A stretch of 32,000 bases of DNA. Source: Opitutales bacterium (GTDB taxonomy: Bacteria > Verrucomicrobiota > Verrucomicrobiia > Opitutales > PNEW01). The stretch is taken from assembly GCA_965219535.1 (NCBI GenBank), contig CBDCNV010000002.1, positions 750,001 to 782,000 of the forward strand. The letters are read 5' to 3'. Below are positions 8,219 through 30,728 of this stretch, piece by piece. A program made the position numbers and the translations under genes. A model generated the notes under the pieces. It had not been told where the DNA came from, made no database searches, and saw only the letters and a list, made by a program, of their open reading frames with translations. How positions within the stretch are numbered: position 1 is the first letter of the stretch; each line of letters opens with the position of its first letter.

Positions 8219-8240
8219 AAAATTAAGTTTCCGAATTGAG

Positions 8241-9569: not shown

Positions 9570-9778
9570 AAACTAACCTTTCACTAAGTCATTCTAATGA
9601 GAAAAAAATATCCCAAGAAGGTTTAACTGTCATTCGACGGTTATCGTGGATAGAAATGGCATCATTTAATTTGCCTATTACAGTACCTTCTGGGGCGTTC
9701 GACGGACCATTGAGTATACTCTCGATAGGATCTTGTCAGAAAATTTTCATATGAGCATCCCGATCGACAGAAAATGCA

Positions 9779-10519
9779 TTAGTCTTGGCGCAAAAAGTCG
9801 TGGACTATATCGGCGTATCCTTCTGTATAGTCTATCTCCAGGTAATGAGCTCCGTAATACTCGAGAGGGGTAAAATCAGAGAGATCATATATTGGCATGG
9901 GGTTAAATTGCACTACCCCTTCTCCGGCATGACACACATGTAGTTTAACATCAGTTGTTGTATTGGAGAGTTCGAGGATCTGCATAACTTCAGCACCCTT
10001 TCCATCTGCTCGGGGTATCACCTTCAGTCGCCATGAAGGTAGTAAATTTGGCAAGTCTTCAGATGCAGCTTGCCTCTCCATGGTCGAGCGGACGCTCATT
10101 ATTGATGCACCCGCTAGAAAGGAATCCGTGTACATCACTCTTTCATCCATCTCTACCTTGACGTCGGCATATACTTTTGGCGTACCGTAAATTTCCCTAC
10201 CAGCCGGAATGCCGGAGCGCGCATTATGGAAAACAACAGGAGCAAAATAGCCCACCTGTCCATTATAAGTACATTTTACGATCAATATACTCTCCTCAAA
10301 CTTTCCATAGTTGGTAGACCAAGGCACGGTAAGGCCGATGGCTACGCAATAGCCATCTTCCGCTGCTTCAAAGCACTCAGGTAACACGCGGTCAACCGCT
10401 GAGACTTCGGCACGAAAATACACAAACTGAAAACAAACGTTTCGATAAGCAGACGGGGGCATAGGATAATACGGCGAGTAGGCCGGCATATTAGCGATTC
10501 TATCCATTGGAATAGTCAT
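9779..10519 (-). CDS. acetoacetate decarboxylase (ADC) family protein, paralog 2
   Basis: The ORF is 246 aa: MTIPMDRIANMPAYSPYYPMPPSAYRN...GREIYGTPKVYADVKV...LKVIPRADGKGAEV. It is clearly paralogous to 7475-8218. Confidence 0.9.
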   Translation of the reverse strand: MTIPMDRIANMPAYSPYYPMPPSAYRNVCFQFVYFRAEVSAVDRVLPECFEAAEDGYCVAIGLTVPWSTNYGKFEESILIVKCTYNGQVGYFAPVVFHNARSGIPAGREIYGTPKVYADVKVEMDERVMYTDSFLAGASIMSVRSTMERQAASEDLPNLLPSWRLKVIPRADGKGAEVMQILELSNTTTDVKLHVCHAGEGVVQFNPMPIYDLSDFTPLEYYGAHYLEIDYTEGYADIVHDFLRQD

Positions 10520-13791: not shown

Positions 13792-16230
13792 TCAATTCCC
13801 ATTCGAGTCGAGGAGGGTCTCGATGGAATTATTAACGGCATGGACTTTGACTCCATTAATCTGAGAGGGGGGTATATTCAGATCAAGCGTTATAGAAATG
13901 GGTGATATAACGGTTAATACCGGGCCAACGGGAGATTCAGCGATAAACTCGTAATTGTAGATACCTTCAGCTGTGGGATTGCTGAAATTGAAATCGACAA
14001 GCCTGGGGTTTGTCCAACCGCTGGTCGTGACCATTCCGTCCGCGGTAATGCTTACCGACTCCGGTGCTGCTGAATCAATCGAGAGTGCTATCCCATTCAC
14101 TTCCAAAATTTTTGTAAATAACGGAAGGCTAATATTTTCACCGAAGGCATTCTCAAAGACAGCTTGTATGTTTGCAGCCTGAATATTTGTCGAATCCGAT
14201 TTGAAATTGTCCTGGGAAATGATGGAGCTGAAACCTGCGTTATCGCCTGTTGACGCCACGATCACATTCGACTCATTACTTTGAAGAAGGTCACCTCCAG
14301 CGATTATCAGTGCTCCATCATATTGAATTAACGAAGATCCCTCTCCCAGTATCAAGTGAGGGACGGCATCACCTGCTGCATCGATATCACCGATAATCGC
14401 TCGCACCAAAACCGGGACTCCAGATGCTTTTACTCCTATATCTCCCGTCGCATTATTGAAGCGTGTATTCGCGCAGAGTATACCGCCGAAACCGGTCGAA
14501 TTAATGATCTCTAATAATGCCACGTCGGCCACCGCATCATAAATTTCCCCTTCTGGGAACAAGTCCTGGTTAAATGCATTGATAGAGCCCACCGTGAAGA
14601 TGCTTAGAAAAGAATTTTCGTCCGCACCCTCCACGCGTATTGTTGGTTGGCCTTTTACATAATTTACCGTTGGCTGATTATACTTTGCCGGCGGCGCTGC
14701 TGCCTCAAATGTGTCCGGATCGAGAGTGACCGTTACGGTTGCGTTACCGGAGAATTCTACCTGAACGATGTCATCATTTAAATCAAGGAAAGAGACACGT
14801 GTAATCTCTGAACCATCTGTGCTCAAGGTAACACTTTGTCCGGTTAACAAGACCTGGTTATAAATGTTTCCGTTGGCGTGGGTGATGTTTTCTCCGACGA
14901 CATCACCGAATCCCTCTTGCACGAGATCAGCGGGGACAGTGCTGAGACTAAACACATAGACCGATCCAGAATCCGTGTCATTGTCATCATCTAATGGCGC
15001 TCCTACCAACACGGTATCTTCGCTGACCTCTGCCGTAAAACCGAACCAATCAAGTGCCACCCCATCGCTTGCCGTTAGTTTTGTAACCTCGCCCCAGTTA
15101 TCAGCTCCGCCAGTATTGCGTTTAAAAACGTAAGCGGAGCCGGAATCCTTACCACTGACATCGTCGAAGGTTGTACTGATAACGACGGTATCCCCGTCAA
15201 TATCGACCCATCCGCCTAACCAGTCATCGGGGTCCCCATCACTTGCGGTCAGTTTTGCGGCTTCACCCCAGTTATCGGGACCGCCCACGTTTCGTTCAAA
15301 GATATAAGCGGCACCGGAATCCACGCCTAGTGCATCGTTCAAGTTTGCACCGATCACAACGGTATCTCCACTGATCTCAACATGATTGCCAAATACATCA
15401 TCAGCTGCGCTGTCACTAGCGGTCAGTTTGTTAACTTCCCCCCAGTTGTCATCACCCCCTGCGTCGCGTTCAAAAATATAAGCCGAACCGGAATTGTGAC
15501 CATCGTCATCATCCCACACCGCACCGGCGACAACAGTGTCTCCGCTGATAGCAACTTGAAATGCAAATTTGTCACCTTCTGCCCCATCGGCTGATTTCAG
15601 TTTCGTCACCTCACCCCAGTTGTCAGGACCGCCGGCATTGCGTTCAAAAATATAGGCAGACCCGGAATCGATACCGTTGTCATCGTCGAAATGCGCACCA
15701 ATGGCAACGGTGTCTCCGCTGATCGCAACCGACCAGCCGAACCAATCACCTGCTGCGCCGTCGCTTGCTAGCAGCTTGGCAACCTGCGACCACGCATTGT
15801 TTCCATCGGTGTTACGTTCAAAGATATAAGCGGAACCGGAATCGATTCCGTTGTCGTCATCTAAATGCGCACCGACCACTAAAGTATCCGCATCGATCGC
15901 CGCAAATATTCCAAAATTATCTCCCAACGCGCCATCGTCAGCAATTAGTTTGGCCACCTCATTCCAATTGTGATTACTGCTCTGGGCGCGCTCATAGACA
16001 TAGACCGCGCCGGAATTATTACCGCTGTCATTTACTAGTGGTGCACCCACAATCAGGGTATCGCTGCTTATCCCTACCGCTCGTCCGAATAGTTCCTCCC
16101 TCGCACCATCACCAGCTAATACTTTGCTCAGCTCATTAGTGATGATTGTTTCAGCGACCAATCCTCCTGAGCCGATCGCCAATAGAGCAAATAAGAGAAG
16201 GTAAAGTAAACACTGCGTGCGCGCATTCAT
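13792..16230 (-). CDS. secreted protein: signal peptide + seven FG-GAP-type repeats (beta-propeller) + shared core domain + unique C-terminal extension
   Basis: The ORF is 812 aa with an N-terminal signal peptide (MNARTQCLLYLLLFALLAIGSGG). There are seven ~57-aa repeats of the form D-G-x-x-G-D-x-F-G...ISGDTVVIGA...DSGSAYIFER...NW.EV.KL. The shared core domain spans aa ~446-680 (GENITHANGNIYNQVLLTG...QDNFKSD), followed by a ~130-aa unique tail. Confidence 0.9.
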   Translation of the reverse strand: MNARTQCLLYLLLFALLAIGSGGLVAETIITNELSKVLAGDGAREELFGRAVGISSDTLIVGAPLVNDSGNNSGAVYVYERAQSSNHNWNEVAKLIADDGALGDNFGIFAAIDADTLVVGAHLDDDNGIDSGSAYIFERNTDGNNAWSQVAKLLASDGAAGDWFGWSVAISGDTVAIGAHFDDDNGIDSGSAYIFERNAGGPDNWGEVTKLKSADGAEGDKFAFQVAISGDTVVAGAVWDDDDGHNSGSAYIFERDAGGDDNWGEVNKLTASDSAADDVFGNHVEISGDTVVIGANLNDALGVDSGAAYIFERNVGGPDNWGEAAKLTASDGDPDDWLGGWVDIDGDTVVISTTFDDVSGKDSGSAYVFKRNTGGADNWGEVTKLTASDGVALDWFGFTAEVSEDTVLVGAPLDDDNDTDSGSVYVFSLSTVPADLVQEGFGDVVGENITHANGNIYNQVLLTGQSVTLSTDGSEITRVSFLDLNDDIVQVEFSGNATVTVTLDPDTFEAAAPPAKYNQPTVNYVKGQPTIRVEGADENSFLSIFTVGSINAFNQDLFPEGEIYDAVADVALLEIINSTGFGGILCANTRFNNATGDIGVKASGVPVLVRAIIGDIDAAGDAVPHLILGEGSSLIQYDGALIIAGGDLLQSNESNVIVASTGDNAGFSSIISQDNFKSDSTNIQAANIQAVFENAFGENISLPLFTKILEVNGIALSIDSAAPESVSITADGMVTTSGWTNPRLVDFNFSNPTAEGIYNYEFIAESPVGPVLTVISPISITLDLNIPPSQINGVKVHAVNNSIETLLDSNGN
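14947..16119 (-). repeat. seven tandem coding repeats (FG-GAP-like blades) inside 13792-16230
   Basis: Seven consecutive units were counted in the translation (aa ~38-428). The DNA-level similarity between units is visible (for example ggaatcgat(a/t)ccgttgtc(a/g)tc recurs). Confidence 0.8.
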
Positions 16231-16357
16231 GGTCTTTTATGCCTAGAGGAGCTCACACTGGGGACAGTTAATTCGTAATGCATGTTCCTATTACAAGAAG
16301 TATAACCTTTTGAACTGGACACTATCATAACCCAAAGACACGGTAAACTTAATTCCT

Positions 16358-18949
16358 ATGAAGTGCCGTAACGCCATTCTTTTATGTGTTGCCGCTATCC
16401 TGATTTTATCGGGATGCAATGAAAAAGAAGAGCTGACAACTGAAGAGGCGATTACCTGGGGAGAGCTTCAGCAACTGCCAAATTCCTCGGGACTAAGTGG
16501 CGCTTTTTCTGGTCCCAGCAAGGGTGCATTGATTGTCGCGGGAGGAGCAAACTTCATTCAGGAACCGGGGAGAGGAGAGGGAATAGTAAACTGGAATGAT
16601 ACGCTCAATGTGTTAGAGGGCGACCCAGACGCAGCGTGGATAAGTGATTTCGCACTCAAAAAACCGTTGGCTTATGGTGCATCTGTAAGCACAGGTAAAA
16701 GTTTAATCCTGATTGGAGGGAAAAATGCCGAGGGACATCAAAGTGATGTCATTCAACTCACATGGGATCGGGCATCGAAGATGGTCGCCAAGGAGGAGCT
16801 GCCGTCTTTACCGCAGGCAATCGCCTATTCCGGTGCGGCAATAAAAGGTTCGAAATTGTATGTCGTGGGGGGGCAGGGCGGCGATGAGGAGTCAGAGCTA
16901 TCAAACATATTCTTGTCACTCGACTTGAATAACCTGGAAGCTGGTTGGAAAGAGCTGACAACTTGGGATGGGCCCGCTCGGAGAAAAGCGATTACCGTAG
17001 AGCAAAGTATCGGTAATATCACCTATATTTATATCATAGGCGGTGAAGGCTTGTATAAAGATGCGGAAGGTAAAACTCACACTGTGCTGTATACTGACGG
17101 CTATCGTTATTCCCTCCAATATAAGGAATGGAAGCGCATAGCCGATTGCCCCCAACCGATAACGGCGACCCCGGCGATCAAGTACGGACAATCCCATATT
17201 CTCGTCTTTGGTGGAGATAGGGGACAGAAATTAAGCGACGGATCAGAAGACGAGGAGCCGGGATACACGCGCGATCTTCTTGTTTATCATACGATCACTG
17301 ATACCTGGCTAAAAAAGGGGGAGGTCCCGTTGCCGGTGAATGCGACCGAAGCGATTGCCTATAAGGGCGGCATAGTCCTTGTCAGTGGAGAGACCGGTGC
17401 GAGCAAAACGACACCGAAGGTTCAAATCATGTATCATGACAAAGACGCACAGGCATCATTTGGATTAATTAACTACACGTTTCTCATTCTCTATATGGTG
17501 GTCATGGTTTACATCGGTATCTATTTCTCCAGGCGGGAAAAAGGAACTGACGATTACTTTCTCGCAGGACGACGCATACCCTGGTGGGCTGCGGGAATCA
17601 GCGTACTGGGGACGGGTCTCAGCGCATTAACTTATATCTCGCATCCGGCAATGGCTTATTCCATGGACTGGTTTGCCTTCCCGGCAAAGATAGGAATTAT
17701 AATCGCCCCGATCATCACGATTTACTGTTTTTTGCCCTTCTATAGAAGGCTCAATGTTACGACGGCCTATGAGTACCTGGAAAAACGTTTTAACCTTCCG
17801 GTTCGTTTATATGGCAGTGCACAGTTTATCGTTTTTCAATTGGTGCGCATCAGCCTCATTCTCTATTTACCCGGGATTGTATTATCCACGATCACGGGAA
17901 TAAACATCTATGTCTGTGTATTGTCGATGGGGCTGCTCAGCACCTTTTACACCGTGATGGGGGGTATAGAAGCCGTAGTGTGGTCAGACGTTATTCAAGT
18001 TATAGTTTTCTTTGCCGGCATCATTCTCGCAATCATTGTTGTTACTTTTCATGTCGATGGCGGGGTGATGGGTGTCATTGAAATTGGTATGGCCGATGAT
18101 AAATATCGCATGCTGTATCTGGACTGGGATATCACGGCGCCCGTTCTATGGGTGGTCGTGGTGGGGAATTCTTTTAATACCTTAGTGCAATATACCGCGG
18201 ACCAGGGGATGATCCAGCGTTACCTTACAACGAAGGATGAAAAATCAGCGGCAAAAGGCTTGTGGTTAAACGTAGCCGTTACTATTCCCGTGGGGTTGCT
18301 TTTTTTCATCATGGGTGCCGCACTCTATGCCTATTATAAATCGCATCCGGCTGAACTCAGTTTAGGGATGCAAAATGATGCCATTTATCCTCTCTTCACG
18401 GCGCAAAGGATACCCATAGGTCTCGCCGGATTTGTCATAGCGGCCATCTTTTCTGCCGCGATGTCGAGTTTGGACAGCAGCATGAATTCGATAGCGACCG
18501 CTTTTGTCACCGACTTTTACCGAAGATTCAAACCCGATAAGTCTGAACACCAATATTTAAAATTAGCCCGGTGGGTTACATTGGTAATCGGTATTTTTGG
18601 AACCGCTTTTGCTCTCGTCCTTGTGACTTTCGACATTAAGTCGGTGACTTTGTTTAATGTCGCGATCATTGGATTATTAAGCAGTGGACTCGCCGCATTG
18701 TTTGCACTCGGTGTCTTTACCCGTCGCGCCAATGGGATCGGTGTTTTAATCGGAGCAATTACCAGTGCGATCGCCCTTTATTTTATTAAGTTCTACACAC
18801 CGATTAATTTTTATTTCTATGCCTGTCCCGGTTTCATCATCTGTTTTGCCGTGGGGTATCTAGTGAGTTTAGTTATACCGGTAAAAGATAAATCTCTTGA
18901 AGGGCTTACGCTTTATTCTGTCTTAGGAAGAGATGACGAGGGGAAGTGA
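16358..18949 (+). CDS. fusion protein: lipoprotein signal + NanM-like Kelch beta-propeller + sodium:solute symporter (SSS) family transporter, copy 1
   Basis: The ORF is 863 aa. It begins MKCRNAILLCVAAILILSGC, which contains a lipobox. Residues ~30-360 resemble N-acetylneuraminate epimerase NanM/YjhT (GLSGAFSGPSKGALIVAGGANF..., LVSGETGASKTTPKV). Residues ~365-863 form a polytopic SSS domain (DDYFLAGRRIPWW, TAYEYLEKRF, GGIEAVVWSDVIQ, QRYLTTKDEK, AAIFSAAMSSLDS). Confidence 0.9.
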   Translation: MKCRNAILLCVAAILILSGCNEKEELTTEEAITWGELQQLPNSSGLSGAFSGPSKGALIVAGGANFIQEPGRGEGIVNWNDTLNVLEGDPDAAWISDFALKKPLAYGASVSTGKSLILIGGKNAEGHQSDVIQLTWDRASKMVAKEELPSLPQAIAYSGAAIKGSKLYVVGGQGGDEESELSNIFLSLDLNNLEAGWKELTTWDGPARRKAITVEQSIGNITYIYIIGGEGLYKDAEGKTHTVLYTDGYRYSLQYKEWKRIADCPQPITATPAIKYGQSHILVFGGDRGQKLSDGSEDEEPGYTRDLLVYHTITDTWLKKGEVPLPVNATEAIAYKGGIVLVSGETGASKTTPKVQIMYHDKDAQASFGLINYTFLILYMVVMVYIGIYFSRREKGTDDYFLAGRRIPWWAAGISVLGTGLSALTYISHPAMAYSMDWFAFPAKIGIIIAPIITIYCFLPFYRRLNVTTAYEYLEKRFNLPVRLYGSAQFIVFQLVRISLILYLPGIVLSTITGINIYVCVLSMGLLSTFYTVMGGIEAVVWSDVIQVIVFFAGIILAIIVVTFHVDGGVMGVIEIGMADDKYRMLYLDWDITAPVLWVVVVGNSFNTLVQYTADQGMIQRYLTTKDEKSAAKGLWLNVAVTIPVGLLFFIMGAALYAYYKSHPAELSLGMQNDAIYPLFTAQRIPIGLAGFVIAAIFSAAMSSLDSSMNSIATAFVTDFYRRFKPDKSEHQYLKLARWVTLVIGIFGTAFALVLVTFDIKSVTLFNVAIIGLLSSGLAALFALGVFTRRANGIGVLIGAITSAIALYFIKFYTPINFYFYACPGFIICFAVGYLVSLVIPVKDKSLEGLTLYSVLGRDDEGK

Positions 18950-18986
18950 ACAGCCGCCGTCGCTTCGCTATGGCGTGCCATGGTGA
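18949..18986. repeat. family A repeat fragment (inner right-arm segment)
   Basis: The sequence aacagccgccgtcgcttcgctatggcgtgccatgg resembles aacagccgtcgctgtgctatgttaggctatg of the copy at 10890-10930. It abuts the stop codon of the SSS gene. Confidence 0.4.
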
Positions 18987-19079
18987 ACAGTGAACAGTGA
19001 TGCTTATTATCAAACGATTGTAACAGTGTCGAGATTCCTAAACTTTGAGGTTAGATTGTTATATCAATATTTTATAAAG

Positions 19080-19224
19080 CTTCGTCTTCGTCTCTCTCTT
19101 CGTCTTCGTCCATGGATATTAATTCATTATCAAGGAATAGAAGAAGCGTGCTAGGGACAGCCCGCTCCACCTACATATTTTAATAAATATGTGGACGGAG
19201 ACGAAGAGAGAGACGAAGACGAAG
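19080..19224. repeat. 33-nt inverted repeat (32/33 match) enclosing a family A unit; candidate bidirectional terminator hairpin
   Basis: The left arm at 19080-19112 is cttcgtcttcgtctctctcttcgtcttcgtcca. The right arm at 19192-19224 is tggacggagacgaagagagagacgaagacgaag. The 79-nt loop contains the repeat at 19140-19171. It lies between two convergent genes. Confidence 0.75.
19140..19171. repeat. family A repeat, solitary short right arm
   Basis: The sequence is gaagaagcgtgctagggacagcccgctccacc. Confidence 0.85.
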
Positions 19225-19265
19225 ATTACGATTATATCAGAAACGTAGCCTCTGACTTGCTATGT

Positions 19266-20454
19266 CTACTGCACAAATGCGCTAATGGCATTTACGATGG
19301 CGAGATAGCGGGGTTCCTCGGCGTCGTTGGCGAGCATACTGGGTTCATAGACGCTGAAATTGTTATGGTCTCCGCTCCGCTCGACGGTGATCTCATAATT
19401 GAATCCATCAGCGACCGTCGATAAAAGATCACCATTCGAGGGTATGGTGAATACATCATTCAATTCGAGTTCTTGCCAAAGCTGGTCTAAATCTTCCGCG
19501 GCGATCTCAAATTCTGATCGTTCGCCGGTAAACCCTTCCACGAATACATAAATTATTGATCCGTCAATTTCCCTAAGGGTTGTCAATTCTGAGATACCCG
19601 CAATGCCTCCGGTTTTATGCATAACAATACTTCCAATGATTATGTTCTTTTCGACCGCGACGGTTATTGTCTCTCCATTCCCATTTACGAAAGTGGTGTC
19701 AATCCCCTGCGAGGGTTGATCCGATCCATCTGACTTTACATTGTCTTGGGTTATGAGTGTCTCAAATCCGGGTGTCGTCGATCCATCCGGCGCTACGACT
19801 ATCGAAACTCCGTTTGACTGTTGAAGATCACCGCCTGTGATTCGCAATCCGGAATTGTTTGCGGGGACCGTGAAGGAACCATCTCCAAATAAAAGGTACG
19901 GAACGGCATCCCCACTGGCATCGATGTCGCCCAGGGTTAAGCGAACCGTGATCGGCACGCCGGTCGCATCGACCCCCACCTTACCCGTGTTCCCGCTAAA
20001 GACGGTATTCGATAATTGCATTCCACCCATTCCCGTGGAGTTGGTGACTTCCACCAGGCTCACATCCGCCTTGGCATCATAGACCTGCCCATCGGGAAAC
20101 AATGCCTGGTTCACGGCGTTTATTGATCCAACAGTGAAGATACTGAAAAAGGTGCTGGAGTCCGCTCCCTCGATTACCACGCTGGGCTTGCCCGTGACGT
20201 AGAGAACTTCCTGGTTATAGCGAGGTGGAAGGGCAGGGGGTGTGAAAGTGATTGGATCCAGAGTTACAGTAAAGGTACCGGATCCCGAGAACTCTACCTG
20301 GACAATATCTTCGTCTTCGTCCATGAACGATACGCGGGTGATCTGATTCTGTTTTGCCTGGAGCCTAATACTTTCACCGGTGAGCAAAACCTGGTCGAAT
20401 ATGTTTCCATTCGGATGAATTATATTCTCTCCGACAACATTACCTGAGCTGGAG
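19266..20454 (-). pseudogene. C-terminal fragment (core domain + unique tail) of a core-domain family gene split by the IS element
   Basis: The frame is open from the IS boundary (…SSSGNVVGENIIHPNGNIFDQVLLTGESIRLQAK…) to the stop at 19266. The 'M' start in the ORF track is a TTG inside the conserved LLTGE motif, so it is not a real start. The core spans ~19728-20432, followed by a ~150-aa unique tail. Confidence 0.8.
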
Positions 20455-20514
20455 TGACCCCCAAAAATCGTATCATTTACAGAGAGAGGTTATCGGGATA
20501 AACAGATAACCTCA

Positions 20515-20808
20515 ATGAAAAGAAAAAGATACACAACAGAACAGATTATAACAATATTGCGGCAAGCCGATACCGGTAAAACGGTACAGGAAATCTGCCG
20601 TGGAAACAACCTGAGCGAACAGACTTTCTATCGCTGGCGTAAAAAATATGGCAATTTAGAACTTGCCGATGCGAAGCGATTTAAAGAGCTGGAAAAAGAA
20701 TTCACGAGCGCAAGCGAGAAGGCCTGACATACCGAGCTGAAGAAGCTGCTCGCAGATCAAATGCTCAAGAATCAGGTAATGGAGGAAACGCTGTCAAAAA
20801 AATGGTGA
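20515..20808 (+). pseudogene. IS3-family transposase OrfA (HTH + leucine-zipper) with an in-frame TGA at 20725-20727
   Basis: The frame reads MKRKRYTTEQIITILRQADTGKTVQEICRGNNLSEQTFYRWRKKYGNLELADAKRFKELEKEFTSASEKA*HTELKKLLADQMLKNQVMEETLSKKW*. Both parts are in the same frame. Confidence 0.75.
20796..20802 (+). promoter_or_regulatory. A AAA AAA -1 programmed ribosomal frameshift heptamer (OrfA->OrfAB)
   Basis: The sequence tcA AAA AAA tgg tga is in the OrfA frame. A -1 slip enters the OrfB frame exactly at 20802 (atg gtg agc ...). This is the classic IS3-family arrangement. Confidence 0.75.
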
Positions 20809-21767
20809 GCCCAAAGCAGAAGAAACGAGTAGTAAAAGCTGCGGCTGAGAAAGGGTTGTGCTCGTTGCGGAGGGCTTGTGCTTATCTCAGCCTGAGTTGG
20901 TCAACGTTCAGTTACCGGCCCAAACAGGCCAGTGAGAAAGCTCAGCGGTTGGTCGAGCGGATTGTGAGCTTGTCCTGGAAACATCCCCGCTACGGTTACC
21001 GGCGCATCCGTGCCTTGCTGGTAAAGGAAGGCTGGACAACAAGCAGGAAGTTTGTCCAGGCGGTACGACGTTCAGAAGGGCTGCAGGTAAAGCCCCCGAA
21101 AAAGGGCAGACACCGTCAAGGAGTCTCTACGGGGTCACCTACTAAAGCAAAGGGTCGCAATCACGTTTGGTCCTGGGACTTTGTCCATGATCGTACAGAC
21201 AACGGCGGTCCATTAAAGATGATGACTCTAATCGATGTACCGAGGAGCTGAAAGCGACGACACTCAAGCGAAGCGAAGACATATACGCGTAAATGCCTGG
21301 ATATCCGGGTCGCTCGTCAACTCACCTCAACCGATGTCCTCTCTGTGCTTAGCGAGGCCATTGAAGAGGAGGGACCTCCCAGCTATATCCGTAGTGACAA
21401 CGGCAGTGAGTTCATTGCTCATCAAGTGCAGCAGTGGTTGTCCGGTAATAACATAAAGGCGATCTATATCGATCCGGGCAGTCCCTGGCAAAACGGTTTC
21501 ATCGAGTCGTTTCACAACCGCTTACGCGATGAGTGTTTGAACCGTGAAGTGTTGCTCAGCGTGGCTGAAGCGCAAGTGGTAATCGAACAATGGCGTCAGA
21601 CCTATAACCATGAACATCCCCACAGTCGTTTAGGCTTCAAAAGCCCACAAGAGTTTGTCAGATTCCTTTCCGATCTTGGCCGCGTTCGGGCTACGCCCTC
21701 ACTTCGCCAAGATCTCTCATATACATCAATCCTAAAACCATTAACACCCGGTAACTCTCTCACTTAA
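20802..21767 (+). pseudogene. IS3-family transposase OrfB (DDE integrase-like) with an in-frame TGA at 21249-21251
   Basis: ORFs 20802-21251 and 21345-21767 are in the same frame (both start coordinates are multiples of 3). Reading through gives ...LKMMTLIDVPRS*KRRHSSEAKTYTRKCLDIRVARQLTSTDVLSVLSEAIEEEGPPSYIRSDNGSEF.... Confidence 0.75.
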
Positions 21768-21788
21768 ATTGGTACGAAAAACGGGGTC

Positions 21789-23002
21789 CGATCAGAGCCT
21801 TCGATGATAAGATCCTGGCCCTCTCCGGTGAATTGGATCGAAAGCATAGGTCGTCTATCCGCGGTGACACTTTCTTTACTGTCGAATTGAGTCGACGATC
21901 CCGTAATCGAATCATCGACGATCAGAATCCAGCCAAAATTCTGGTCAGGGTTATCCAACCAGGCTTGTGTGTCGGCAATCATCGCAAGTGAACTCCAGGT
22001 AATAAAACCCGTCTCTGATAAAGTTTGGGTAGCGGATGGGGTGGTTACAAAATCACCTCCCGGTGTAGTCCAATTATCACTCTCGAAAAAGCTAAAATTC
22101 CAAGTGGCGTCTCCAATTGTCGGGGGACCACCCTGACCGGCACCCACAGAGTTTCCCTCGCCCCATTCCTGGTTAAGACTGTGTAAGAAAGTGTCTACTG
22201 AGATGTCATTCGTCGGCGCGCCACGTTTATTGGCAAACAAAGTAAGCGACACGGATTCAATGACTCCGTTGCTGGGAATGCTGCCGGCCAGGTCAAATTG
22301 AATTAACGCTCGGCGAATCCCCGAACCCATCTGGCCCTGCGTTCTACCGGAAAAAAGATCAATGCCATGGGCATTACTGTTATCATTTTCCGAATAAATG
22401 GAGTTATCTTTAATAGATTCAAGGATAACGGTATTAATGGGTGGTCCTATAAGATAGGAGAAACCGAGATCATCAAGGGCGAAGAGACCTACAACATTCA
22501 AAACTGTGATTTCCCTGATCCCGCTCGTATAATCTAAATCCGATGTATCGTTATTATCACCACTGAAGGCGACAAAACTTTGTAAAGGGGCAATGACGTC
22601 GGGGCCTATATTTACGGGCAGACCATCGACGACACCATTGGGATGCAATTCTATGCCGGTTTTGTCCCGCACCTCTATCCTTCCAGCGCCCGTTGTTTCC
22701 GCAGCCGTGAATTGGAGTAAGTTAACCCCGCGTTCAAAAATTATTCTACCTTCCTGCCCCGGCGCGAGAATCAGGGCCCGGGTTCCCGAACTATATATAT
22801 TAGGATTGCTCGTCGCAGTCGCGGTAAATCCAATGACCCGGATACTATTGGGTGATTCGCCGAGGATAAAATCTCCCGAGCCCTCATCATTCTCAAAATC
22901 GAAAAAGTTATCGAGGTTTTGGGGCTGGGCGAGAACCAGGACAGGTAAAGCTATTAAGAGTGTTGTGAACGATAAAAGTTTCTTACTGCTCATGGGCTGC
23001 AT
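21789..23002 (-). pseudogene. N-terminal fragment (signal peptide + N-module + DNRLRE-like domain) of the IS-split core-domain family gene
   Basis: The signal peptide is MQPMSSKKLLSFTTLLIALPVLVLAQP. The N-module is homologous to the N-termini of 26032-28239 and 28518-30728 (NFFDFENDEGSGDFILGESPNSIRVIGFT...GTRALILAPGQEGRIIFE). The following segment (RRALIQFDLAGSIP...LNQEWGEG...ATWN...NFGWILIV...RRPMLSIQF) looks like a DNRLRE-type domain. The last 8 codons of the track ORF (to 21764) are read from IS sequence. Confidence 0.8.
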
Positions 23003-23192
23003 TCATTAGAACGTATAATCGTTATTAAATGAATTTATTTATAATATGTTAGTGGTCAAGGCCTTCGATATGACTTAGAATCATATAGTTACGTAATACT
23101 GACTGATAATTCCTATTCCCGTTCCGTCCAAGTGAGAAAAGGTTTTAAACTGGACAGTGTTTAGTTCCAAAGGCACCGTCTATGCAAAACTT

Positions 23193-25775
23193 ATGAAACG
23201 TCTATTTATCCTTTCGTTAACATTATTCGGTGTCTTATTAATTACGGGTTGCAGTGAGACTGAAGCTCCGCAATCGGAAGCGATCACCTGGGAAGAGCTT
23301 CCCGAACTTCCCAATACGGTTGGCTTGGGTGGCGCGTTTTCCGGGGTGAGCAATGGAGCATTGATCGTCGCCGGTGGGGCGAATTTTCCCGATGAACCCG
23401 AGTGGGAGGGTGGGACAAAAGTCTGGTATGATGATATTTATATTTTAACGCCTGAAAATAAAGAAAAGGAGTGGTTGACCGGATTTAAACTTAATCAACC
23501 GCTTGCTTACGGGGCCTCGGTCAGCAGTGGGGACAGCCTGATCCTGATCGGCGGCAGCGATGCCGAACGCTATCATGACGGGGTCACAAAACTCACCTGG
23601 AATCCTGAAGGCGAGATAATTGAGCAAAGCTCTCTTCCATCCTTACCGCAACCGCTATGCTTTGGTGATGCAGCTGTGATTGAAGATACGCTATACGTAG
23701 CAGGCGGCCAGGTCGGTGAGGATAGCGAGAGTCTGATAAATATATTCTGGTCTCTCGACCTGAGCATTAAAGATGCAGAATGGATTGTATTAGAACCCTG
23801 GGATGGACCGGCCCGAAGGAAGGCGCTTGTAACAGCTCAGAATGAGGGAGACAGGACATATTTATATATTATCGGAGGCGAAGATCTGATTAACGATGGG
23901 GACGGGAAAGTAAAATTCAATCCATTGATTGATGGTTACCGTTACTCACTAAGGTATAAGCAATGGGAACGTATTGCTGATGCACCGCATCCAATAACGT
24001 CGGCATCGGGGATATCCTATGGTCAATCGCACATTCTGGTATTTGGTGGAGCAACGGGTGAATATCTCGGTCAGATTCTGCGGGATGATCACCCTGGATT
24101 TTCCACCGACCTGCTCGTCTATCATACAATTACCGACACCTGGCTAATCAAAGATAAAATACCTTTAAGTGTGGTCACCTCAAATGCCGTGTCCTGGGGA
24201 GTAGGGATCGCGCTTGTAAGTGGTGAGATTCGACCCAGTAGAAGAACACCCAAGGTCCAACTAATGATGCATGACACCGGCGCGCGCGCGACCTTTGGCA
24301 TAATAAATTACCTTTTTCTCATTTCATACATGATAGGGTTGGTAATCATGGGCCTCTATTTTTCCAAACGGGAGAAGGGAACAGATGATTACTTTCTCGC
24401 CGGACGCCGCATACCCTGGTGGGCTTCAGGGCTAAGCGTCATGGGGACCGGACTTAGCGCGCTCACATACATTTCCCTGCCGGCACTAGTTTATGGCACA
24501 GACTGGTTTTCTTATCCCGGAGTTGTCGGACTCTTGCTCGTCCCGATAATTACGGTCTACTTTTATCTGCCCTTCTTCAGAAGGCTCAACATCGTCACCG
24601 CTTTTGAATACCTTGAAAGACGATTTAATCTCCCGGTTCGCTTATACGGCAGTGCACAGTTTATCATCTTTCAATTGGTACGGATCAGTATCGTATTGTA
24701 TTTGCCCGCCATCGTTCTCTCCACGATCACTGGAATAAACATTTACGTATGCATACTATCGATGGGACTGCTGAGTACTTTTTATACGGTGCTCGGTGGG
24801 ATAGAAGCGGTGGTCTGGACGGATGTTTTTCAAGTCATTATTTTCTTTGGTGGAATCATCGTGGCCCTGATTGTTATTCCCTTTCATATCGAAGGCGGTG
24901 TTATGGAGATGATTAAAACGGGAATGGCCGACGATAAATTCCGCATTTTTTACCTGGAATGGGATATTACGGCGACGACCTTTTGGGTAGTCGTTCTTGG
25001 TGGTGGATTTGGTACCTTAATCCAGTACACCTCTGATCAAGCGATGATCCAAAGGTATCTTACAACAAAGGATGAAAAGGCGGCGGCTAAAGGGTTATGG
25101 CTAAATGTAGCGATGACTATTCCTACCGGATTATTATTTTACTGTATGGGGACCGCGCTTTATACCTTTTACCATTCCCACCCTTCAAGCGTTAACCTGG
25201 GAATGCAGAATGATGCGATTTTCCCTTTATTCATATCACAGAAAATTCCCGTGGGTCTTGCGGGGCTTTTGATTGCCGCTATTTTTTCCGCCGCGATGTC
25301 GAGTCTGGACAGCGGGATGAACTCGATGGCCACGGCCTTTGTCACCGATTTCTACCGACGATTAAAACCGAACGCTTCGGAGCATAGCTGTTTAAGGCTC
25401 GCTCGCTTGGCCACTTTGATTATAGGTGTATTTGCCACTGCGGTTGCTTTACTCATGGTAACCTTTGACATCAAGTCCGCATCTCTCTTTTTCACTTCAA
25501 TCCTTGGCCTATTCAGCAGTGGGTTAGCGGGACTATTTGCGCTTGGTATTTTCACAAAACGGTCAAAAGGGATCGGGGCTTTTATAGGAGCGATCACGAG
25601 CGCAATTGTCCTGTATTGTATAAAATACTATACTGATATTAACTTTTATCTCTATGCTTTTCTTGGCTTCGTGGTCTGTTTCATCGTGGGTTACTTCGCG
25701 AGTCTTATTATCCCGGAGAAAGAGAAATCGATGGAGGGGCTCACGCTCTATACTTCACTTCCCAGGCAAGACTGA
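23193..25775 (+). CDS. fusion protein: lipoprotein signal + NanM-like Kelch beta-propeller + sodium:solute symporter, copy 2
   Basis: It is collinear with 16358-18949 over its full length. The start was chosen at ATG 23193, which gives MKRLFILSLTLFGVLLITGC with a lipobox; the ORF track uses an upstream GTG at 23157. The same SSS motifs are present (DDYFLAGRRIPWW, TAFEYLERRF, QRYLTTKDEK, AAIFSAAMSSLDS). Confidence 0.9.
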   Translation: MKRLFILSLTLFGVLLITGCSETEAPQSEAITWEELPELPNTVGLGGAFSGVSNGALIVAGGANFPDEPEWEGGTKVWYDDIYILTPENKEKEWLTGFKLNQPLAYGASVSSGDSLILIGGSDAERYHDGVTKLTWNPEGEIIEQSSLPSLPQPLCFGDAAVIEDTLYVAGGQVGEDSESLINIFWSLDLSIKDAEWIVLEPWDGPARRKALVTAQNEGDRTYLYIIGGEDLINDGDGKVKFNPLIDGYRYSLRYKQWERIADAPHPITSASGISYGQSHILVFGGATGEYLGQILRDDHPGFSTDLLVYHTITDTWLIKDKIPLSVVTSNAVSWGVGIALVSGEIRPSRRTPKVQLMMHDTGARATFGIINYLFLISYMIGLVIMGLYFSKREKGTDDYFLAGRRIPWWASGLSVMGTGLSALTYISLPALVYGTDWFSYPGVVGLLLVPIITVYFYLPFFRRLNIVTAFEYLERRFNLPVRLYGSAQFIIFQLVRISIVLYLPAIVLSTITGINIYVCILSMGLLSTFYTVLGGIEAVVWTDVFQVIIFFGGIIVALIVIPFHIEGGVMEMIKTGMADDKFRIFYLEWDITATTFWVVVLGGGFGTLIQYTSDQAMIQRYLTTKDEKAAAKGLWLNVAMTIPTGLLFYCMGTALYTFYHSHPSSVNLGMQNDAIFPLFISQKIPVGLAGLLIAAIFSAAMSSLDSGMNSMATAFVTDFYRRLKPNASEHSCLRLARLATLIIGVFATAVALLMVTFDIKSASLFFTSILGLFSSGLAGLFALGIFTKRSKGIGAFIGAITSAIVLYCIKYYTDINFYLYAFLGFVVCFIVGYFASLIIPEKEKSMEGLTLYTSLPRQD

Positions 25776-26031: not shown

Positions 26032-28239
26032 TCACTCGATAGTGATCTCTTCGAGAACAACCTCAATCGCGTCGCCATCTTCGTTAGCGAAGGTAGCGTC
26101 AATGCTCAGGGTCGGCTGAGGGGTGTTGTCGGACTTGAAGTTGTTTTGCGTGATCAGGGTGTCAAACCCGGTCGTTGTCGATCCGCTCTCCGCGACGACG
26201 ACTGCGGCGCCGTTAGTCTGCAAGAGGTCACCACCAGTGATCCGCAACCCGGGGTTACCGGCGGCAACAGTGAAGGAACCTTCACCGAAGAGAATGTGAG
26301 GTACTGCATCGCCACTGGCATCGATATCGCCAATCGTTAAGCGTACCCCGATCGGTACCCCCCGCGCGTCGATACCGGTTTTGCCGGTACTTCCACTGAA
26401 CGCGGTGTTCGACAGTTGTATGCCGCCCATGCCCGTGGAATTTACAATTTCAACTAACGTAACGTCTGCCTGTGCATCATAGACTTGACCTTCGGGGAAG
26501 AGGGCCTGGTTAAACGCGTTGATCCTACCCACGGTGAAGATGCTGAAGAAGGTATTGGCGTCCGCTCCATCGATCACGACGCTCGGTTTGCCCGTCACGT
26601 ACTCAACGGCCTGGTTGTAGCGTGGAGGGATGGCCGGGGGCAGGAAGGTGGCCGGATCGAGGGTTACGGTAAAGGTCCCATTACCTGAAAATTCTACCTG
26701 CACGATGTCCTCATTTTCATCCATGAAGGAGACGCGGGTGATCTGTCCCGGTTTGGCCTGGAGTTGGACGGACTCTCCGGTGAGTAAAATCTGGTCGAAG
26801 ACATTACCGTTGGCATGCTGAATATTTTCCCCCGCGATATCGCCCGAGCCGTCGAGGACGAGGGGAATAGCCGGTGCCGCTACCGTGATCACGGCGGTAT
26901 CGCTGTCAGCACTGCCTCCAGCGTTGGTAATTTGTGCCCAGTAGTTCGTGCTGGTTGTGAGGGCACCGGTAGTTAAAGTGTTGCTTGTGGCGCCCGCGAC
27001 GGGAGCTGCGGTATCACCGCTGTTGCCGGTATACCACTGATAGGTGAGGTCGTCACCGCTGGCAGCAACAGTGAGGACTACCGCGGTGCCGGATGGGACA
27101 TCCTGGCTCGCGGGTTGGGTGGTGATTGCTGGACCTGTTGCCGGAGGTGGTCCGCCGCCGCCATCGAAACCTGGAGTCCCAATCGGGGAAAATCCGAAAT
27201 TGTCGATCGCTGTCGAGCTAAACAAAGGATTAATAAGAACATCATCGAGTAAAAGAATTTTGCCAATACCACCAGGAGCTCCTAGTTCGTTGGCATCAAA
27301 AGTGAAGTGTGGAAGTCCTGACCCCGCTAAGATATTCGACCCCAGGTTATTTTCTGAGAAGAGTAAATTATCTTCAGTATCATATACCTCAATAGTACCA
27401 TCGCCTCCACCGCTGCTTGTGCGCACGACAGTTGCGGCAAAAAATTGCACTCGGGCTGCGGGGGTTTCAAAAGTGATCGTTCCAGTATCACCATTCACAA
27501 CCCTCCAGTGACTACGCAATGAGCGAAATTGAAATTGTAAGTCATCTTCAGCTTCCTGGGATATATCCCCACCTGAAAAAGTGGCGGTAAAAGGCGAAGT
27601 CCCCACGGTAACATCCTCACTGGTTGGTTGGAATTCTGAAAAAAAGGTGAATACCGTGTTATTGGATGGGCCATCAATGAGGGTATAGCCCACATCATCG
27701 ATCGCTAATTTTCCGGTAACATTGAAAAATTTAATTTCAGTCATGCCGTCAAAGTAGTTGAGATCCTCTAAATCCTGGAAAAACCCACTGAAGGCGACTA
27801 AACTTTGCAGGGGTGGATTGGACTCAGGATTGATGCTGTTAGGCAGGCCCGTAAAACTGCCCTGCTGAGATAAGGTGAATATTTCTTGTCCATTAGTGGA
27901 TGTCCCGCGTTCTCGAACCTCGTACTTACCCCCGCCCGTGCTTTCAGCAGCGTAGAATTCGATTTCAGCAATGCCTTTTCTCGTGAAGATTTTTCCCTCC
28001 TGGCCGGGCCCCAGGGTTATGGCTTTCGTTCCCGAGTGTAAGAGACTCGGGTCCTCTAACGTTTCTACGGTAAACCCGATAAATTGAATTTGATTGGGCG
28101 GATCACCGAGTAAAAAGTCTACCGTTCCTTCGGCATCTTCAAAATCTAAAAAATTTTCCTGGTCCTGCGGAAGCGCTCGAAGAAGAAGAGGAAATAAAAG
28201 TGAGATTAGCGATACAGATACGAGATTTTTTATGCGCAT
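26032..28239 (-). CDS. secreted modular protein: signal peptide + N-terminal beta-sandwich-like modules + Ig-like domain + shared core domain (tandem copy 1)
   Basis: The ORF is 735 aa with an AGGGGGG Shine-Dalgarno sequence 5 nt upstream. The signal peptide is MRIKNLVSVSLISLLFPLLLRALP. An Ig-like segment is present (PAITTQPASQDVPSGTAVVLTVAASGDDLTYQWY...AVITV). The core spans aa ~470-704, followed by the acidic tail ...LEEITIE. Confidence 0.9.
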   Translation of the reverse strand: MRIKNLVSVSLISLLFPLLLRALPQDQENFLDFEDAEGTVDFLLGDPPNQIQFIGFTVETLEDPSLLHSGTKAITLGPGQEGKIFTRKGIAEIEFYAAESTGGGKYEVRERGTSTNGQEIFTLSQQGSFTGLPNSINPESNPPLQSLVAFSGFFQDLEDLNYFDGMTEIKFFNVTGKLAIDDVGYTLIDGPSNNTVFTFFSEFQPTSEDVTVGTSPFTATFSGGDISQEAEDDLQFQFRSLRSHWRVVNGDTGTITFETPAARVQFFAATVVRTSSGGGDGTIEVYDTEDNLLFSENNLGSNILAGSGLPHFTFDANELGAPGGIGKILLLDDVLINPLFSSTAIDNFGFSPIGTPGFDGGGGPPPATGPAITTQPASQDVPSGTAVVLTVAASGDDLTYQWYTGNSGDTAAPVAGATSNTLTTGALTTSTNYWAQITNAGGSADSDTAVITVAAPAIPLVLDGSGDIAGENIQHANGNVFDQILLTGESVQLQAKPGQITRVSFMDENEDIVQVEFSGNGTFTVTLDPATFLPPAIPPRYNQAVEYVTGKPSVVIDGADANTFFSIFTVGRINAFNQALFPEGQVYDAQADVTLVEIVNSTGMGGIQLSNTAFSGSTGKTGIDARGVPIGVRLTIGDIDASGDAVPHILFGEGSFTVAAGNPGLRITGGDLLQTNGAAVVVAESGSTTTGFDTLITQNNFKSDNTPQPTLSIDATFANEDGDAIEVVLEEITIE

Positions 28240-28517: not shown

Positions 28518-30728
28518 TCACTCGATAGTGATCTCTTCGGTCGTAACCTCGATCGCATCGCCGTCTTCATTGGCGAAGGTGGCATCGATACTTAATGTCG
28601 GCTGAGGGGTGTTGTCGGACTTGAAATTGTTCTGTGTGATCAGGGTCTCAAACCCGGTCGTTGTCGATCCGCTCTCCGCAACCACGACTGCGGCACCGTT
28701 CGTCTGCAGGAGGTCGCCTCCGGTGATCCGCAGGCCGGGGTTACCGGCGGCAACAGTGAAGGAACCTTCACCGAAGAGAATGTGAGGTACTGCATCGCCA
28801 TCAGCATCGATATCACCGATCGTTAAGCGTACCGCGATCGGTACTCCGCGCGCATCGAAGCCGACATTGCCCGTGCTTCCACTGAACACGGCATTCGATA
28901 ACTGTACCCCTCCCAGTCCCGTGGAGTTGACTACTTCCACGAGGGCCACATCAGCCTGGGCGTCATAGACCTGTCCTTCGGGGAAGAGGGCCTGGTTAAA
29001 GGCGTTGATCGTGCCTACGGTGAAGATGCTGAAGAAGGTATTAGCGTCCGCTCCATCGATCACGACGCTCGGTTTGCCCGTCACGTACTCAACGGCCTGG
29101 TTGTAGCGTGGAGGGATGGCCGGGGGCAGGAAGGTGGCCGGATCGAGGGTTACGGTAAAGGTCCCATTACCTGAAAATTCAACCTGCACGATGTCCTCGG
29201 TTTCATCCATAAAGGAGACGCGAGTAATCTGTCCCGGTTTGGCCTGGAGTTGGACGGACTCTCCGGTGAGTAAAATCTGGTCGAAGACATTACCGTTGGC
29301 ATGCTGAATGTTTTCGCCCGCGATATCGCCCGAGCCGTCGAGGACGAGGGGAACGGCAGGAGCCGCTACGGTGATGACCGCGGTGTCGCTATCGGCGGTC
29401 CCGCCGGCGTTAGTAATCTGTACCCAGAAACTAGTGCTCGCGGTGAGCGCTCCCGTGTCTAAGGTCCCGGCAGTCGCACCGGCGACGGGGGCAGCGGTGT
29501 CACCGCTGTTGCCGATAAACCACTGGTAGGTAAGATCATCACCACTGGCTGCAACGGACAAGCTCGCCGATGCACCGGATGCTACTTCCTGGCTTGCGGG
29601 TTGAGTAGTGATAGAGGGACCTGTTGCTGGAGGTGGTCCGCCGCCGCCTTCAAAACCTGGGGTTCCAATTGGGGAAAATCCGAAATCGTCGATACTCGTT
29701 GAGCTGAATGATGGATTCACATGTTCTTTATCGCTTAAAGTAATTTTGCCAATACCTCCCACAGCTCCCAATTCACTCGCAAGAAATGTATAATGTGGAA
29801 CCAGTGATCCCTGCCGTATATTGGTCGCCAGGTCTTCTTCCGTGGCGAGTAAATTATCTTCAGTATCAAATACCTGAATAGTACCGTCGGATTCGCCTAA
29901 TGCTTGACCGACGATTGTTGAGGCAAAAAATTGTACCCGTGCTGCCGGTGTTTCGAAGGTGATCGTTCCAGTATCGCCATTCTGAACTCTCCAGTGACCA
30001 GGAAATGAGCGGAATTGAAAACCGAGCAAATCTTCCGCTTCTATGGATAAATCTGCGCCAGAAAAGGTGGCGGTAAATGGCGATGTTCCAATGGTAAAAT
30101 CATCACCCGAAGGTTGGAGTGTAGCAAAGTAAGTAAAGACCGTGTTGTTCCTTGGTCCATCGATGAGGGTATAACCCACATCGTCGATGGCTAATTTACC
30201 CGTTACATTCAAGATATTAATTTGATGTATACCGTCAAAGTAGTTGAGATCCTCTAAATCCAGAAAACTGCCACTGAAGGCAACGATACTTTGCAGCGGA
30301 GGATTGGATTCAGGGTTGATGCTGTTTGGAAAGCCTGAAAAATTACCCTGCTGAGTTATAAGAAAATCTTCTCCAGAACCAGAAGCAGTTCCCTCAATTC
30401 TTCGAGCCTCGATCCTAGCGGTACCCGTGGTATCAGCCAAGTAGAATTCGATTTCAGCAATCCCTTTTCTCGTGAAGATCCTTCCCTCCTGGCCAGGCGC
30501 CAGGGTTATAGCTTTCGTACCCGAGTGCAAGAGACTCGGGTCCTCTAACGTTTCTACGGTAAACCCAATAAATTGAATATCATTAGGCGGATCACCGAGT
30601 AAAATGTCTACCGAACCTTCGGCATCTTCAAAATCTAAAAAAACTTCCTGGTCCTGTGGAAGCGCTAGGAGAAGAAGTGGAAAAAAAAGTGAAAGTAGCG
30701 ATACGGATACGAGATTTTTTATGCGCAT
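28518..30728 (-). CDS. secreted modular protein, tandem copy 2 (same architecture as 26032-28239)
   Basis: The ORF is 736 aa and collinear with copy 1. The core domain differs at 14 of 235 residues by my count, and the tail is ...TEEITIE. Confidence 0.9.
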   Translation of the reverse strand: MRIKNLVSVSLLSLFFPLLLLALPQDQEVFLDFEDAEGSVDILLGDPPNDIQFIGFTVETLEDPSLLHSGTKAITLAPGQEGRIFTRKGIAEIEFYLADTTGTARIEARRIEGTASGSGEDFLITQQGNFSGFPNSINPESNPPLQSIVAFSGSFLDLEDLNYFDGIHQINILNVTGKLAIDDVGYTLIDGPRNNTVFTYFATLQPSGDDFTIGTSPFTATFSGADLSIEAEDLLGFQFRSFPGHWRVQNGDTGTITFETPAARVQFFASTIVGQALGESDGTIQVFDTEDNLLATEEDLATNIRQGSLVPHYTFLASELGAVGGIGKITLSDKEHVNPSFSSTSIDDFGFSPIGTPGFEGGGGPPPATGPSITTQPASQEVASGASASLSVAASGDDLTYQWFIGNSGDTAAPVAGATAGTLDTGALTASTSFWVQITNAGGTADSDTAVITVAAPAVPLVLDGSGDIAGENIQHANGNVFDQILLTGESVQLQAKPGQITRVSFMDETEDIVQVEFSGNGTFTVTLDPATFLPPAIPPRYNQAVEYVTGKPSVVIDGADANTFFSIFTVGTINAFNQALFPEGQVYDAQADVALVEVVNSTGLGGVQLSNAVFSGSTGNVGFDARGVPIAVRLTIGDIDADGDAVPHILFGEGSFTVAAGNPGLRITGGDLLQTNGAAVVVAESGSTTTGFETLITQNNFKSDNTPQPTLSIDATFANEDGDAIEVTTEEITIE

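Follow-up and report, generated by a model that had tools for sequence, protein, structure and literature searches.

Sialic acid uptake by a Na+ symporter fused to an exported mutarotase-like domain has been described for SiaF, a clade of the ST5 sialic acid transporters found in Bacteroidetes, Planctomycetes and Verrucomicrobia (Severi et al. 2021, Microb Genom, PMC8461474). The exported NanM domain is proposed to supply the beta-anomer to the symporter to which it is fused (PMC8461474), and many, not all, SiaF genes are linked to nan genes. In the symporter SiaT of Proteus mirabilis, Ser60, Thr63 and Arg135 bind the carboxylate, and Thr58, Gln82, Phe243 and Asn247 make the contacts to the glycerol tail, the anomeric hydroxyl and the N-acetyl group (PMC5931594). 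Two genes for transporters of the SiaF type, T1 and T2, lie in a stretch of 32,000 nucleotides from an Opitutales bacterium (GenBank assembly GCA_965219535.1, contig CBDCNV010000002.1, positions 750,001 to 782,000), here called the window, among genes for predicted secreted proteins which share a domain of ~270 amino acids termed here the core. An earlier note on this DNA had recognised a head-to-head pair of one core gene and one transporter gene, occurring twice, and had proposed a two-component uptake system. The explanation which we favour, with moderate confidence, is that T1 and T2 are SiaF paralogues placed among an array of genes for secreted proteins, which belong to an expanded family specific to the lineage and probably bind glycans, and that their adjacency to core genes reflects duplication history with at most a loose functional relation. 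An obligate two-component uptake system working from a divergent promoter is not supported. Domain identities, copy numbers, synteny, enrichment and predicted folds are direct results of the analysis; the class of substrate, the binding of glycans, the docking role of the core and any coupling to transport are deduced from them.

The window comes from a third genome related to OY829953.1 and CBDANS01 (Opitutales; the source organism is marine). The genomes used for comparison were OY829953.1 (4.49 Mb), CBDANS01 (also assembled as a 3.1-Mb contig) and a metagenome contig, L076. Both head-to-head pairs, A with T1 and the 5' part of B with T2, were found with the reading frames and the spacers of 127 and 190 bp that had been claimed for them (Table 1). 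The region holds five core genes, A to E, and not two as had been supposed. Reading along the forward strand the order is A (-), T1 (+), B (-), T2 (+), C (-), D (-) and E (-), with each transporter gene flanked by core genes on both sides and with B convergent with T1 and divergent from T2.

Judged from their domains, T1 and T2 have the SiaF architecture of a leader peptide, a NanM-like propeller and a C-terminal domain of the sodium/solute symporter (SSS) type nearest to SiaT, in a host phylum, Verrucomicrobiota, which is among those named for SiaF. In T1 a lipoprotein-like signal is followed by the propeller (residues ~30-360) and the symporter domain (residues ~365-850). The propeller had been labelled as Kelch; it is a propeller, more exactly the NANM mutarotase propeller PF24996, for which T1 and T2 scored above the cut-off of 45 bits (109.7 and 123.4; E = 1.9e-31 for T1). 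The model for a cyclically permuted mutarotase, TIGR03548 (mutarot_permut), gave matches below its cut-off (130 and 152 vs 243). The symporter half matched SSF PF00474 (E = 2.8e-47 for T1 and 1.3e-46 for T2) and TIGR00813, the latter above its cut-off. The N-termini, MKCRNAILLCVAAILILSGC and MKRLFILSLTLFGVLLITGC, when read by eye appear as hydrophobic signals with a lipobox-like xGC (…LILSGC in T1 and …ITGC in T2). The start of T2 was placed at the ATG at 23193, a GTG further upstream at 23157 being set aside as the orthologues begin at the MKRL... signal peptide. The full-length paralogy of the two transporters was borne out (63% identity over 861 aligned residues).

The best relative of T1 of known structure is P. 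mirabilis SiaT (PDB 5nv9, E = 5.2e-104 over the whole SSS domain), which itself carries no propeller fusion. In the HMMER alignment T1 keeps the carboxylate-binding Ser60, Thr63 and Arg135 of SiaT, and the other contact residues differ, Thr58 being replaced by Gly, Gln82 by Ala, Phe243 by Asn and Asn247 by Thr, which may also set T1 apart from SiaF as published. Because only the carboxylate-binding residues are kept, the substrate may be something other than N-acetylneuraminic acid (Neu5Ac), and we infer a carboxylated, sialic-acid-like sugar, perhaps another nonulosonic or acidic sugar. By homology, T1 and T2 would work as diverged SiaF paralogues in which the exported, NanM-like mutarotase propeller converts the released anomer of such a sugar in the periplasm and the SiaT-like Na+ symporter imports it.

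There are further differences from the published description of SiaF. No member of the NanA, NanK or NanE families was present among the 20 window open reading frames (ORFs) scanned, and the only nan-related gene in the window is a BNR_2 sialidase-like gene at 4216-5463. The CBDANS01 genome has at least ten SiaF paralogues, six from a protein search and four seen only in loci. T2 belongs to a subgroup of T2-like genes which has several copies per genome, and its nucleotide identity to those in loci L023, L027, L041 and L047 is ~80%. Core-domain neighbours are absent from the published description, and a search for later literature on partners of SiaF yielded only the original paper and its preprint. 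The statement of the earlier note that no such system has been described therefore needs to be divided: the fusion transporter was already published as SiaF (PMC8461474), and only its neighbourhood with core genes is, as far as the literature searched shows, undescribed. As a side observation, the T1 orthologue of CBDANS01 ends a co-directional run of MFS_1, Amidohydro_2, Rieske and SiaF genes (L069/L070 4596-10595), in which 12 bp separate the end of the Rieske gene from SiaF and which stands as an insertion between A and T1; a Rieske oxygenase beside a sialic-type importer may hint at sugar modification.

The core domain has no relative in Pfam, NCBIfam or the PDB. AlphaFold2 modelled it as an all-beta structure (pLDDT 70.6, pTM 0.73) that is confident over the first ~110 residues, and a Foldseek comparison of this model with the PDB gave no match. 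The core scan, made on one genome per species with confirmation by tblastn, gave 133 confirmed copies, and the best 80 of these matches, in 68 loci (L001-L068), all come from two Opitutales assemblies. Within the fetched loci the number of unique core ORFs is at least 66 for OY829953.1 and at least 49 for CBDANS01, tandem arrays being frequent. With 55 full-length genes of ~2.2 kb each, the family takes up ~2.7% of a chromosome of 4.5 Mb. An exhaustive profile search found 771 core representatives. In 68 diverse representatives the core is combined with Ig-like, He_PIG, CARDB, subtilase, NHL, RCC1 and FG-GAP partners and stands at either end of the protein. A C-terminal sorting signal was considered for the core and rejected, since many representatives carry the core at the N-terminus and A and B have additional tails behind it. 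The core would be a module of general use in secreted proteins, most plausibly one that they share for docking, anchoring or assembly and that carries variable binding heads.

The architecture of C and D (signal peptide, N-module, second module, Ig_7 and core) is that of 86 of 115 core genes, and the A-type and B-type architectures are each single copies among the 115. The pairwise identity of 81 full-length paralogues is ~90% in the core, 70-80% in Ig_7 and 37-67% in the N-terminal 360 amino acids; such a conserved core next to a variable N-half suggests concerted evolution of the 3' half of these genes. The N-half of C was modelled as two beta-jelly rolls (pLDDT 84.9). A Foldseek search of the PDB with this model gave 135 hits at E <= 1e-3, although the TM-scores were low (0.2-0.3). 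The top fold relatives are the tandem CBM22 carbohydrate-binding modules (CBMs) of Xyn10C (4xup, E = 1.1e-8), CBM51, CBM32, an F-type lectin and the surface glycan-binding protein SGBP-B of B. thetaiotaomicron (7kwb, E = 1.4e-5), and the N-half of the common form may well bind glycans. The proposal that the secreted partner captures a glycan is thus in keeping with the CBM-like tandem jelly rolls of the commonest members. No promoter conserved across the family was found upstream of the C-type genes, column conservation in a quick alignment being 0.33-0.64.

Genes A and B depart from the common form. A has seven stretches of FG-GAP_2 (PF14312, E = 5.4e-122), which probably form a seven-bladed propeller, and B has a DNRLRE domain (NF033679, E = 1.2e-12) behind a module of ~195 amino acids, which shares 44% identity with the N-terminal parts of C and D. 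As had been noted, A and B have only the core in common (52% identity over 251 amino acids) and their N-modules are unrelated; the core of A is 52-57% identical to those of B, C and D. The proteins A, B, C and D all have signal peptides, with no cysteine at the predicted cleavage sites. We would picture a Sec-exported family in which variable, ligand-binding modules are joined to the conserved core of ~270 amino acids. In the common form this variable part would consist of CBM-like jelly rolls in tandem; A would have an FG-GAP propeller in its place, and B a jelly roll followed by DNRLRE. The core would serve for common docking, anchoring or assembly and the variable half would bind glycans.

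This picture recalls the surface proteins of the polysaccharide utilisation loci (PULs) of Bacteroidota, such as the SusE/F-like proteins and SGBP-B (7kwb). The core proteins are likewise predicted to be secreted, multi-domain and built with tandem beta-sandwich CBM-like domains, and they too have many paralogues per genome beside catabolic and transport loci. They differ in that the signal peptides of A to D are without a lipobox cysteine, in that no SusC/D-type partner, TonB-dependent receptor or SusD family is found among the window ORFs, and in being defined by a core of ~270 amino acids without a known relative; the likeness is one of fold only.

The neighbours of core genes are diverse. 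In the 68 loci the commonest non-core neighbours are PhyH-type Fe(II)/2-oxoglutarate dioxygenases, with 54 copies in the loci, 17 of them adjoining core genes (e.g. L003 7448-8317), followed by FG-GAP_3 proteins (9-10), SiaF (8-9) and then sulfatases, aldolases and fusions of a substrate-binding protein (SBP) to a permease. One such fusion, a protein of 1095 amino acids that combines a solute-binding domain (SBP_bac_5) with an ATP-binding cassette permease domain (BPD_transp_1; L016 12006-15293), adjoins core genes in 4 cases. Of 14 genes for secreted FG-GAP_3 (VCBS-like) proteins of ~940 amino acids, 9 stand directly beside a core gene (p = 2e-4; e.g. L004 13979-16801), and a link between FG-GAP propellers and the core is thus seen twice over, by fusion in gene A (FG-GAP_2) and by neighbourhood (FG-GAP_3). 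Three distant core genes, P0096, P0081 and P0068, have no NANM or SSF neighbour; they lie in a cluster of sulfatase and PhyH genes, in a mobile/defence island and among housekeeping genes. The members of the family are scattered beside many catabolic and transport loci, and on the favoured explanation they are not dedicated partners of the transporters.

The pairing was also followed from the side of the transporter. Among 80 metagenome loci centred on SiaF genes, which amount to 1.1 Mb and have 36-86% identity to T1, the core hidden Markov model matched only the two closest relatives and 78 of the 80 loci gave no match. The two families are also of different size, with NanM-SSS fusions forming at least 4499 clusters vs the 771 core representatives. 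Adjacency in other genomes, which the earlier note had named beforehand as a condition for its proposal, is largely lacking, both in these 78 loci and at the three distant core genes. The pairing is limited to a narrow Opitutales lineage.

Within this lineage the proximity of the genes is conserved and the head-to-head geometry is not. The arrangement is divergent for A/T1 and B/T2, convergent for T2/C in the window and in L014, L023, L027, L035/36 and L041, and co-directional in L003 and L028/L072. Contig L076 has the complete order A-T1-B-T2-C-D. The A-T1 part of the window has its orthologue in L018 (90.5% nucleotide identity) and the B-T2-C-D part in L023 (84-94%); orthologues of A are present in L018, L076 and L069. 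In CBDANS01 both divergent pairs are broken, making one of the four related genomes in which this is so. There A lies five genes from the T1 orthologue (cyclic nucleotide (cNMP)-binding protein, a small ORF with no Pfam match, major facilitator, amidohydrolase and Rieske), B is convergent to the T1 orthologue, and the T2 orthologue keeps its own upstream sequence of 140 nucleotides with no core gene within 8 kb. The convergent unit of a C-type gene and SiaF aligns at ~67-87% nucleotide identity across both genes in at least 5 paralogous loci, and the intergenic spacer cannot be aligned. Because both genes align between loci and the spacer does not, the unit appears to have been duplicated repeatedly as a segment. 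The adjacency to SiaF would thus come from repeated duplication of a core and SiaF unit together with local rearrangement, perhaps with a loose, non-obligate relation between the products.

The short motif which the earlier note had reported in both divergent spacers is present there, one copy in each. It has the form TTTT[GA]AACTGGACA and its last base lies 37 nucleotides upstream of the ATG of T1 and of T2; with up to 2 mismatches it is matched 3 times in the window vs 0.43 expected. Among the other fetched loci, only that of the T2 orthologue has the exact 13-mer. When the upstream regions of T1, of T2 and of the SiaF genes in 20 loci were set side by side (22 regions, 20 distinct genes), 13 of the 22 were seen to have a wider motif, ACTGGACAG, ~35-40 nucleotides upstream of the ATG, the carriers including L010, L014, L018, L023, L027, L041, L047, L065, L071, L073 and L074. 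The T2-like group also has AAGGCAC(C/T)GTC ~15 nucleotides after this box. Some carriers have a co-directional upstream gene ~55 bp away and some have no divergent core gene. Since the box is present upstream of unpaired SiaF genes, it would be the transporter's own promoter, operator or leader and not a bidirectional control element of the pair, and the motif was rejected as a signature of the pairing. A hairpin or a sigma-54-like reading of the motif, attempted by eye, gave nothing consistent.

Several observations weigh against reducing the adjacency to duplication history. The 68 core-centred loci contain 14 SiaF genes of which 8 directly adjoin a core gene, where the baseline for non-core genes is 19% (Fisher p = 0.0017), and this enrichment is specific to the NanM-fused form, as SSS genes without NanM in the same neighbourhoods adjoin a core gene in 1 of 16 cases. 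Of the ten SiaF genes of CBDANS01, 4 have an immediate core neighbour, with ~3% expected on the assumption of ~50-65 core genes among ~3,700 genes, and 6 have a core gene within 3 kb. At least three arrangements (A/T1 divergent, C-type convergent and C-type co-directional) hold the gene types together, and B adjoins SiaF in 4 of 4 related genomes despite rearrangement, as selection for proximity would predict. These adjacency counts are not independent, as they come from orthologous loci of two related genomes and from paralogous duplicates, and the SiaF totals per genome are indirect. The earlier claim of a conserved pairing thus holds as an enriched proximity within the lineage, and does not hold for the head-to-head geometry or for other lineages.

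Such observations would be accommodated if the adjacent core proteins were accessory partners in glycan capture or processing for the SiaF of the same locus, like the surface glycan-binding proteins of Bacteroidota PULs. We regard this as a tentative and on balance unlikely alternative, and the same reserve applies to its detailed form, in which the variable module binds a sialylated or acidic glycan outside the cell and the freed monosaccharide is mutarotated and imported by SiaF. The specificity of the enrichment for the NanM-fused form, the retention of adjacency in several orientations and beside B, the CBM-like fold of the N-half with its match to SGBP-B, the signal peptides on A to D, and BNR_2 sialidase-like genes found near SiaF and A in the window, L069 and L073 all agree with it. 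It is opposed by the 78 SiaF loci elsewhere that do without a partner, by the finding that, of the 50-66 copies in each genome, the majority lie beside unrelated genes, and by P0130, P0148 and P0162, which have no nearby core gene. In the window itself B is disrupted by an insertion sequence (IS) while T2 is intact. With SiaF in the inner membrane, a direct hand-over from a secreted protein is neither needed nor evident. The core proteins may have a loose accessory role.

It is improbable that the core family consists of variable surface or contingency proteins, concerned with adhesion or with evasion of phages or grazers, whose 3' halves are gene-converted and which came to lie near SiaF by hitch-hiking with no role in uptake. 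A family of 50-66 copies per genome with a core conserved at ~90% and an N-half only ~50% identical, arranged in tandem arrays and duplicated as blocks with SiaF, is what would be seen in such a case. The adhesin-like Ig, He_PIG and CARDB partners elsewhere in the family and the distant members among housekeeping genes and in a mobile/defence island would also fit. However, the N-half has a CBM-like fold, the sulfatase, PhyH, aldolase and transporter neighbours suggest contexts of carbohydrate utilisation, and enrichment at SiaF and not at plain SSS genes is unexpected under pure hitch-hiking. That the two head-to-head pairs, with their like gene types in like orientation twice within 12 kb, arose by one recent segmental duplication in this genome was ruled out by the levels of divergence (T1 and T2 only 63% identical, the A and B cores 52%, unrelated N-modules and spacers with only a 14-nucleotide motif in common) and by the separate orthologous loci in OY829953 (L018 and L023, at different chromosomal places) and in L076.

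Two-component uptake of sialic acid is established for SBP-dependent secondary transporters, namely the tripartite TRAP transporter SiaPQM, in which, as here, the gene of an extracytoplasmic protein stands beside that of a Na+-coupled transporter of the sialic type. The core proteins are, according to their models, all-beta and multi-domain and not SBPs of the Venus-flytrap type, the core partner is not conserved with the transporter family, and SiaF carries a periplasmic domain of its own. Of the features expected for two-component secondary uptake, neither a co-conserved partner gene nor a periplasmic-binding-protein fold was found.

The coordinates of the features are given in Table 1.

Table 1. 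Core genes, SiaF-type transporter genes and associated features of the window.
Feature	Coordinates	Strand	Description
Gene A	13792-16230	-	812 amino acids; signal peptide, 7 FG-GAP_2, core at residues ~430-705, C-terminal tail of ~105 amino acids
A/T1 divergent intergenic region	16231-16357	.	127 bp; motif TTTTGAACTGGACA at 16308-16321 (+)
T1, SiaF-type transporter	16358-18949	+	863 amino acids; PF24996 NANM and PF00474 SSF
Gene B, 3' part	19266-20449	-	core and tail of ~123 amino acids; matches L023 16299-17522 at 94%
IS3-family insertion sequence in B	20450-21794	+	HTH_21, rve_3/rve; transposase frames broken
Gene B, 5' part	21795-23002	-	signal peptide, one predicted CBM-like N-module, DNRLRE (NF033679)
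B/T2 divergent intergenic region	23003-23192	.	190 bp; motif TTTTAAACTGGACA at 23143-23156 (+)
T2, SiaF-type transporter	23193-25775	+	860 amino acids; paralogue of T1
Gene C	26032-28239	-	signal peptide, two predicted CBM-like jelly rolls, Ig_7, C-terminal core; convergent with T2
Gene D	28518-30728	-	tandem paralogue of C, 82% identity
Gene E	31216-32000	-	fifth core gene; in frame to the window end, 5' part beyond the window

The splitting of B by an insertion sequence, as described previously, was verified. The element belongs to the IS3 family, with a helix-turn-helix orfA and a DDE (rve) orfB. It is flanked by a short target duplication, and the orthologous site in L023, which aligns straight through the B junction, is empty; the IS is likewise absent from L076. 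When the IS and a 3-nucleotide duplication were deleted in silico a B ORF of 796 amino acids was restored, with the junction …IIEGSGNVVGEN… in agreement with the intact orthologue P0040, and it is from this reconstruction that the 3-nucleotide target duplication was deduced. Copies of the IS at 84-89% nucleotide identity are present in L020, L031, L041, L048 and L068. The tail of B (19266-19640) has a weak match to Pfam Emfourin, a family of metalloprotease inhibitors, which is below threshold (E = 8.9e-5, 23.3 bits vs a cut-off of 27); gene A has an unrelated tail.

Elsewhere in the window, clustered genes for a copper amine oxidase, two proteins of the acetoacetate decarboxylase family and an M20 peptidase occupy 5497-10519, between the BNR_2 gene and A. 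Because no more than ~1.3 kb lies between BNR_2 and the A orthologue in L069, this block is an insertion or rearrangement in the genome of the window. An Rfam scan of the window gave no match, a sigma-70 scan was at chance level, and a terminator scan was slightly above chance (19 vs 12.4 +/- 3.5 expected) and gave no usable site. A 'tRNA-???' reported by ARAGORN inside core gene E (31331-31417, with a 2-base anticodon) is most likely a false positive.

The transporter half of the locus adds little in itself, being two further members of SiaF, though the presence of at least ten SiaF paralogues with altered substrate-contact residues hints at a range of acidic sugars wider than Neu5Ac. The expanded core family is the more valuable and the more interesting result. 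A rather doubtful proposal is that the core domain marks a class of glycan-binding proteins, new and docked to the envelope, in marine Opitutales. Dozens of paralogues would display various CBM-like or propeller modules on a single conserved docking domain and would serve the loci that they adjoin, those of SiaF importers included. Were this true, it would amount to a PUL-like organising principle for the Verrucomicrobiota, which lack SusC/D. If the core proteins are glycan-binding accessories they would help to explain how marine Verrucomicrobiota capture polysaccharides without Sus-like systems, and if they are not, the family would still be a striking lineage-specific expansion built on a conserved and uncharacterised domain.

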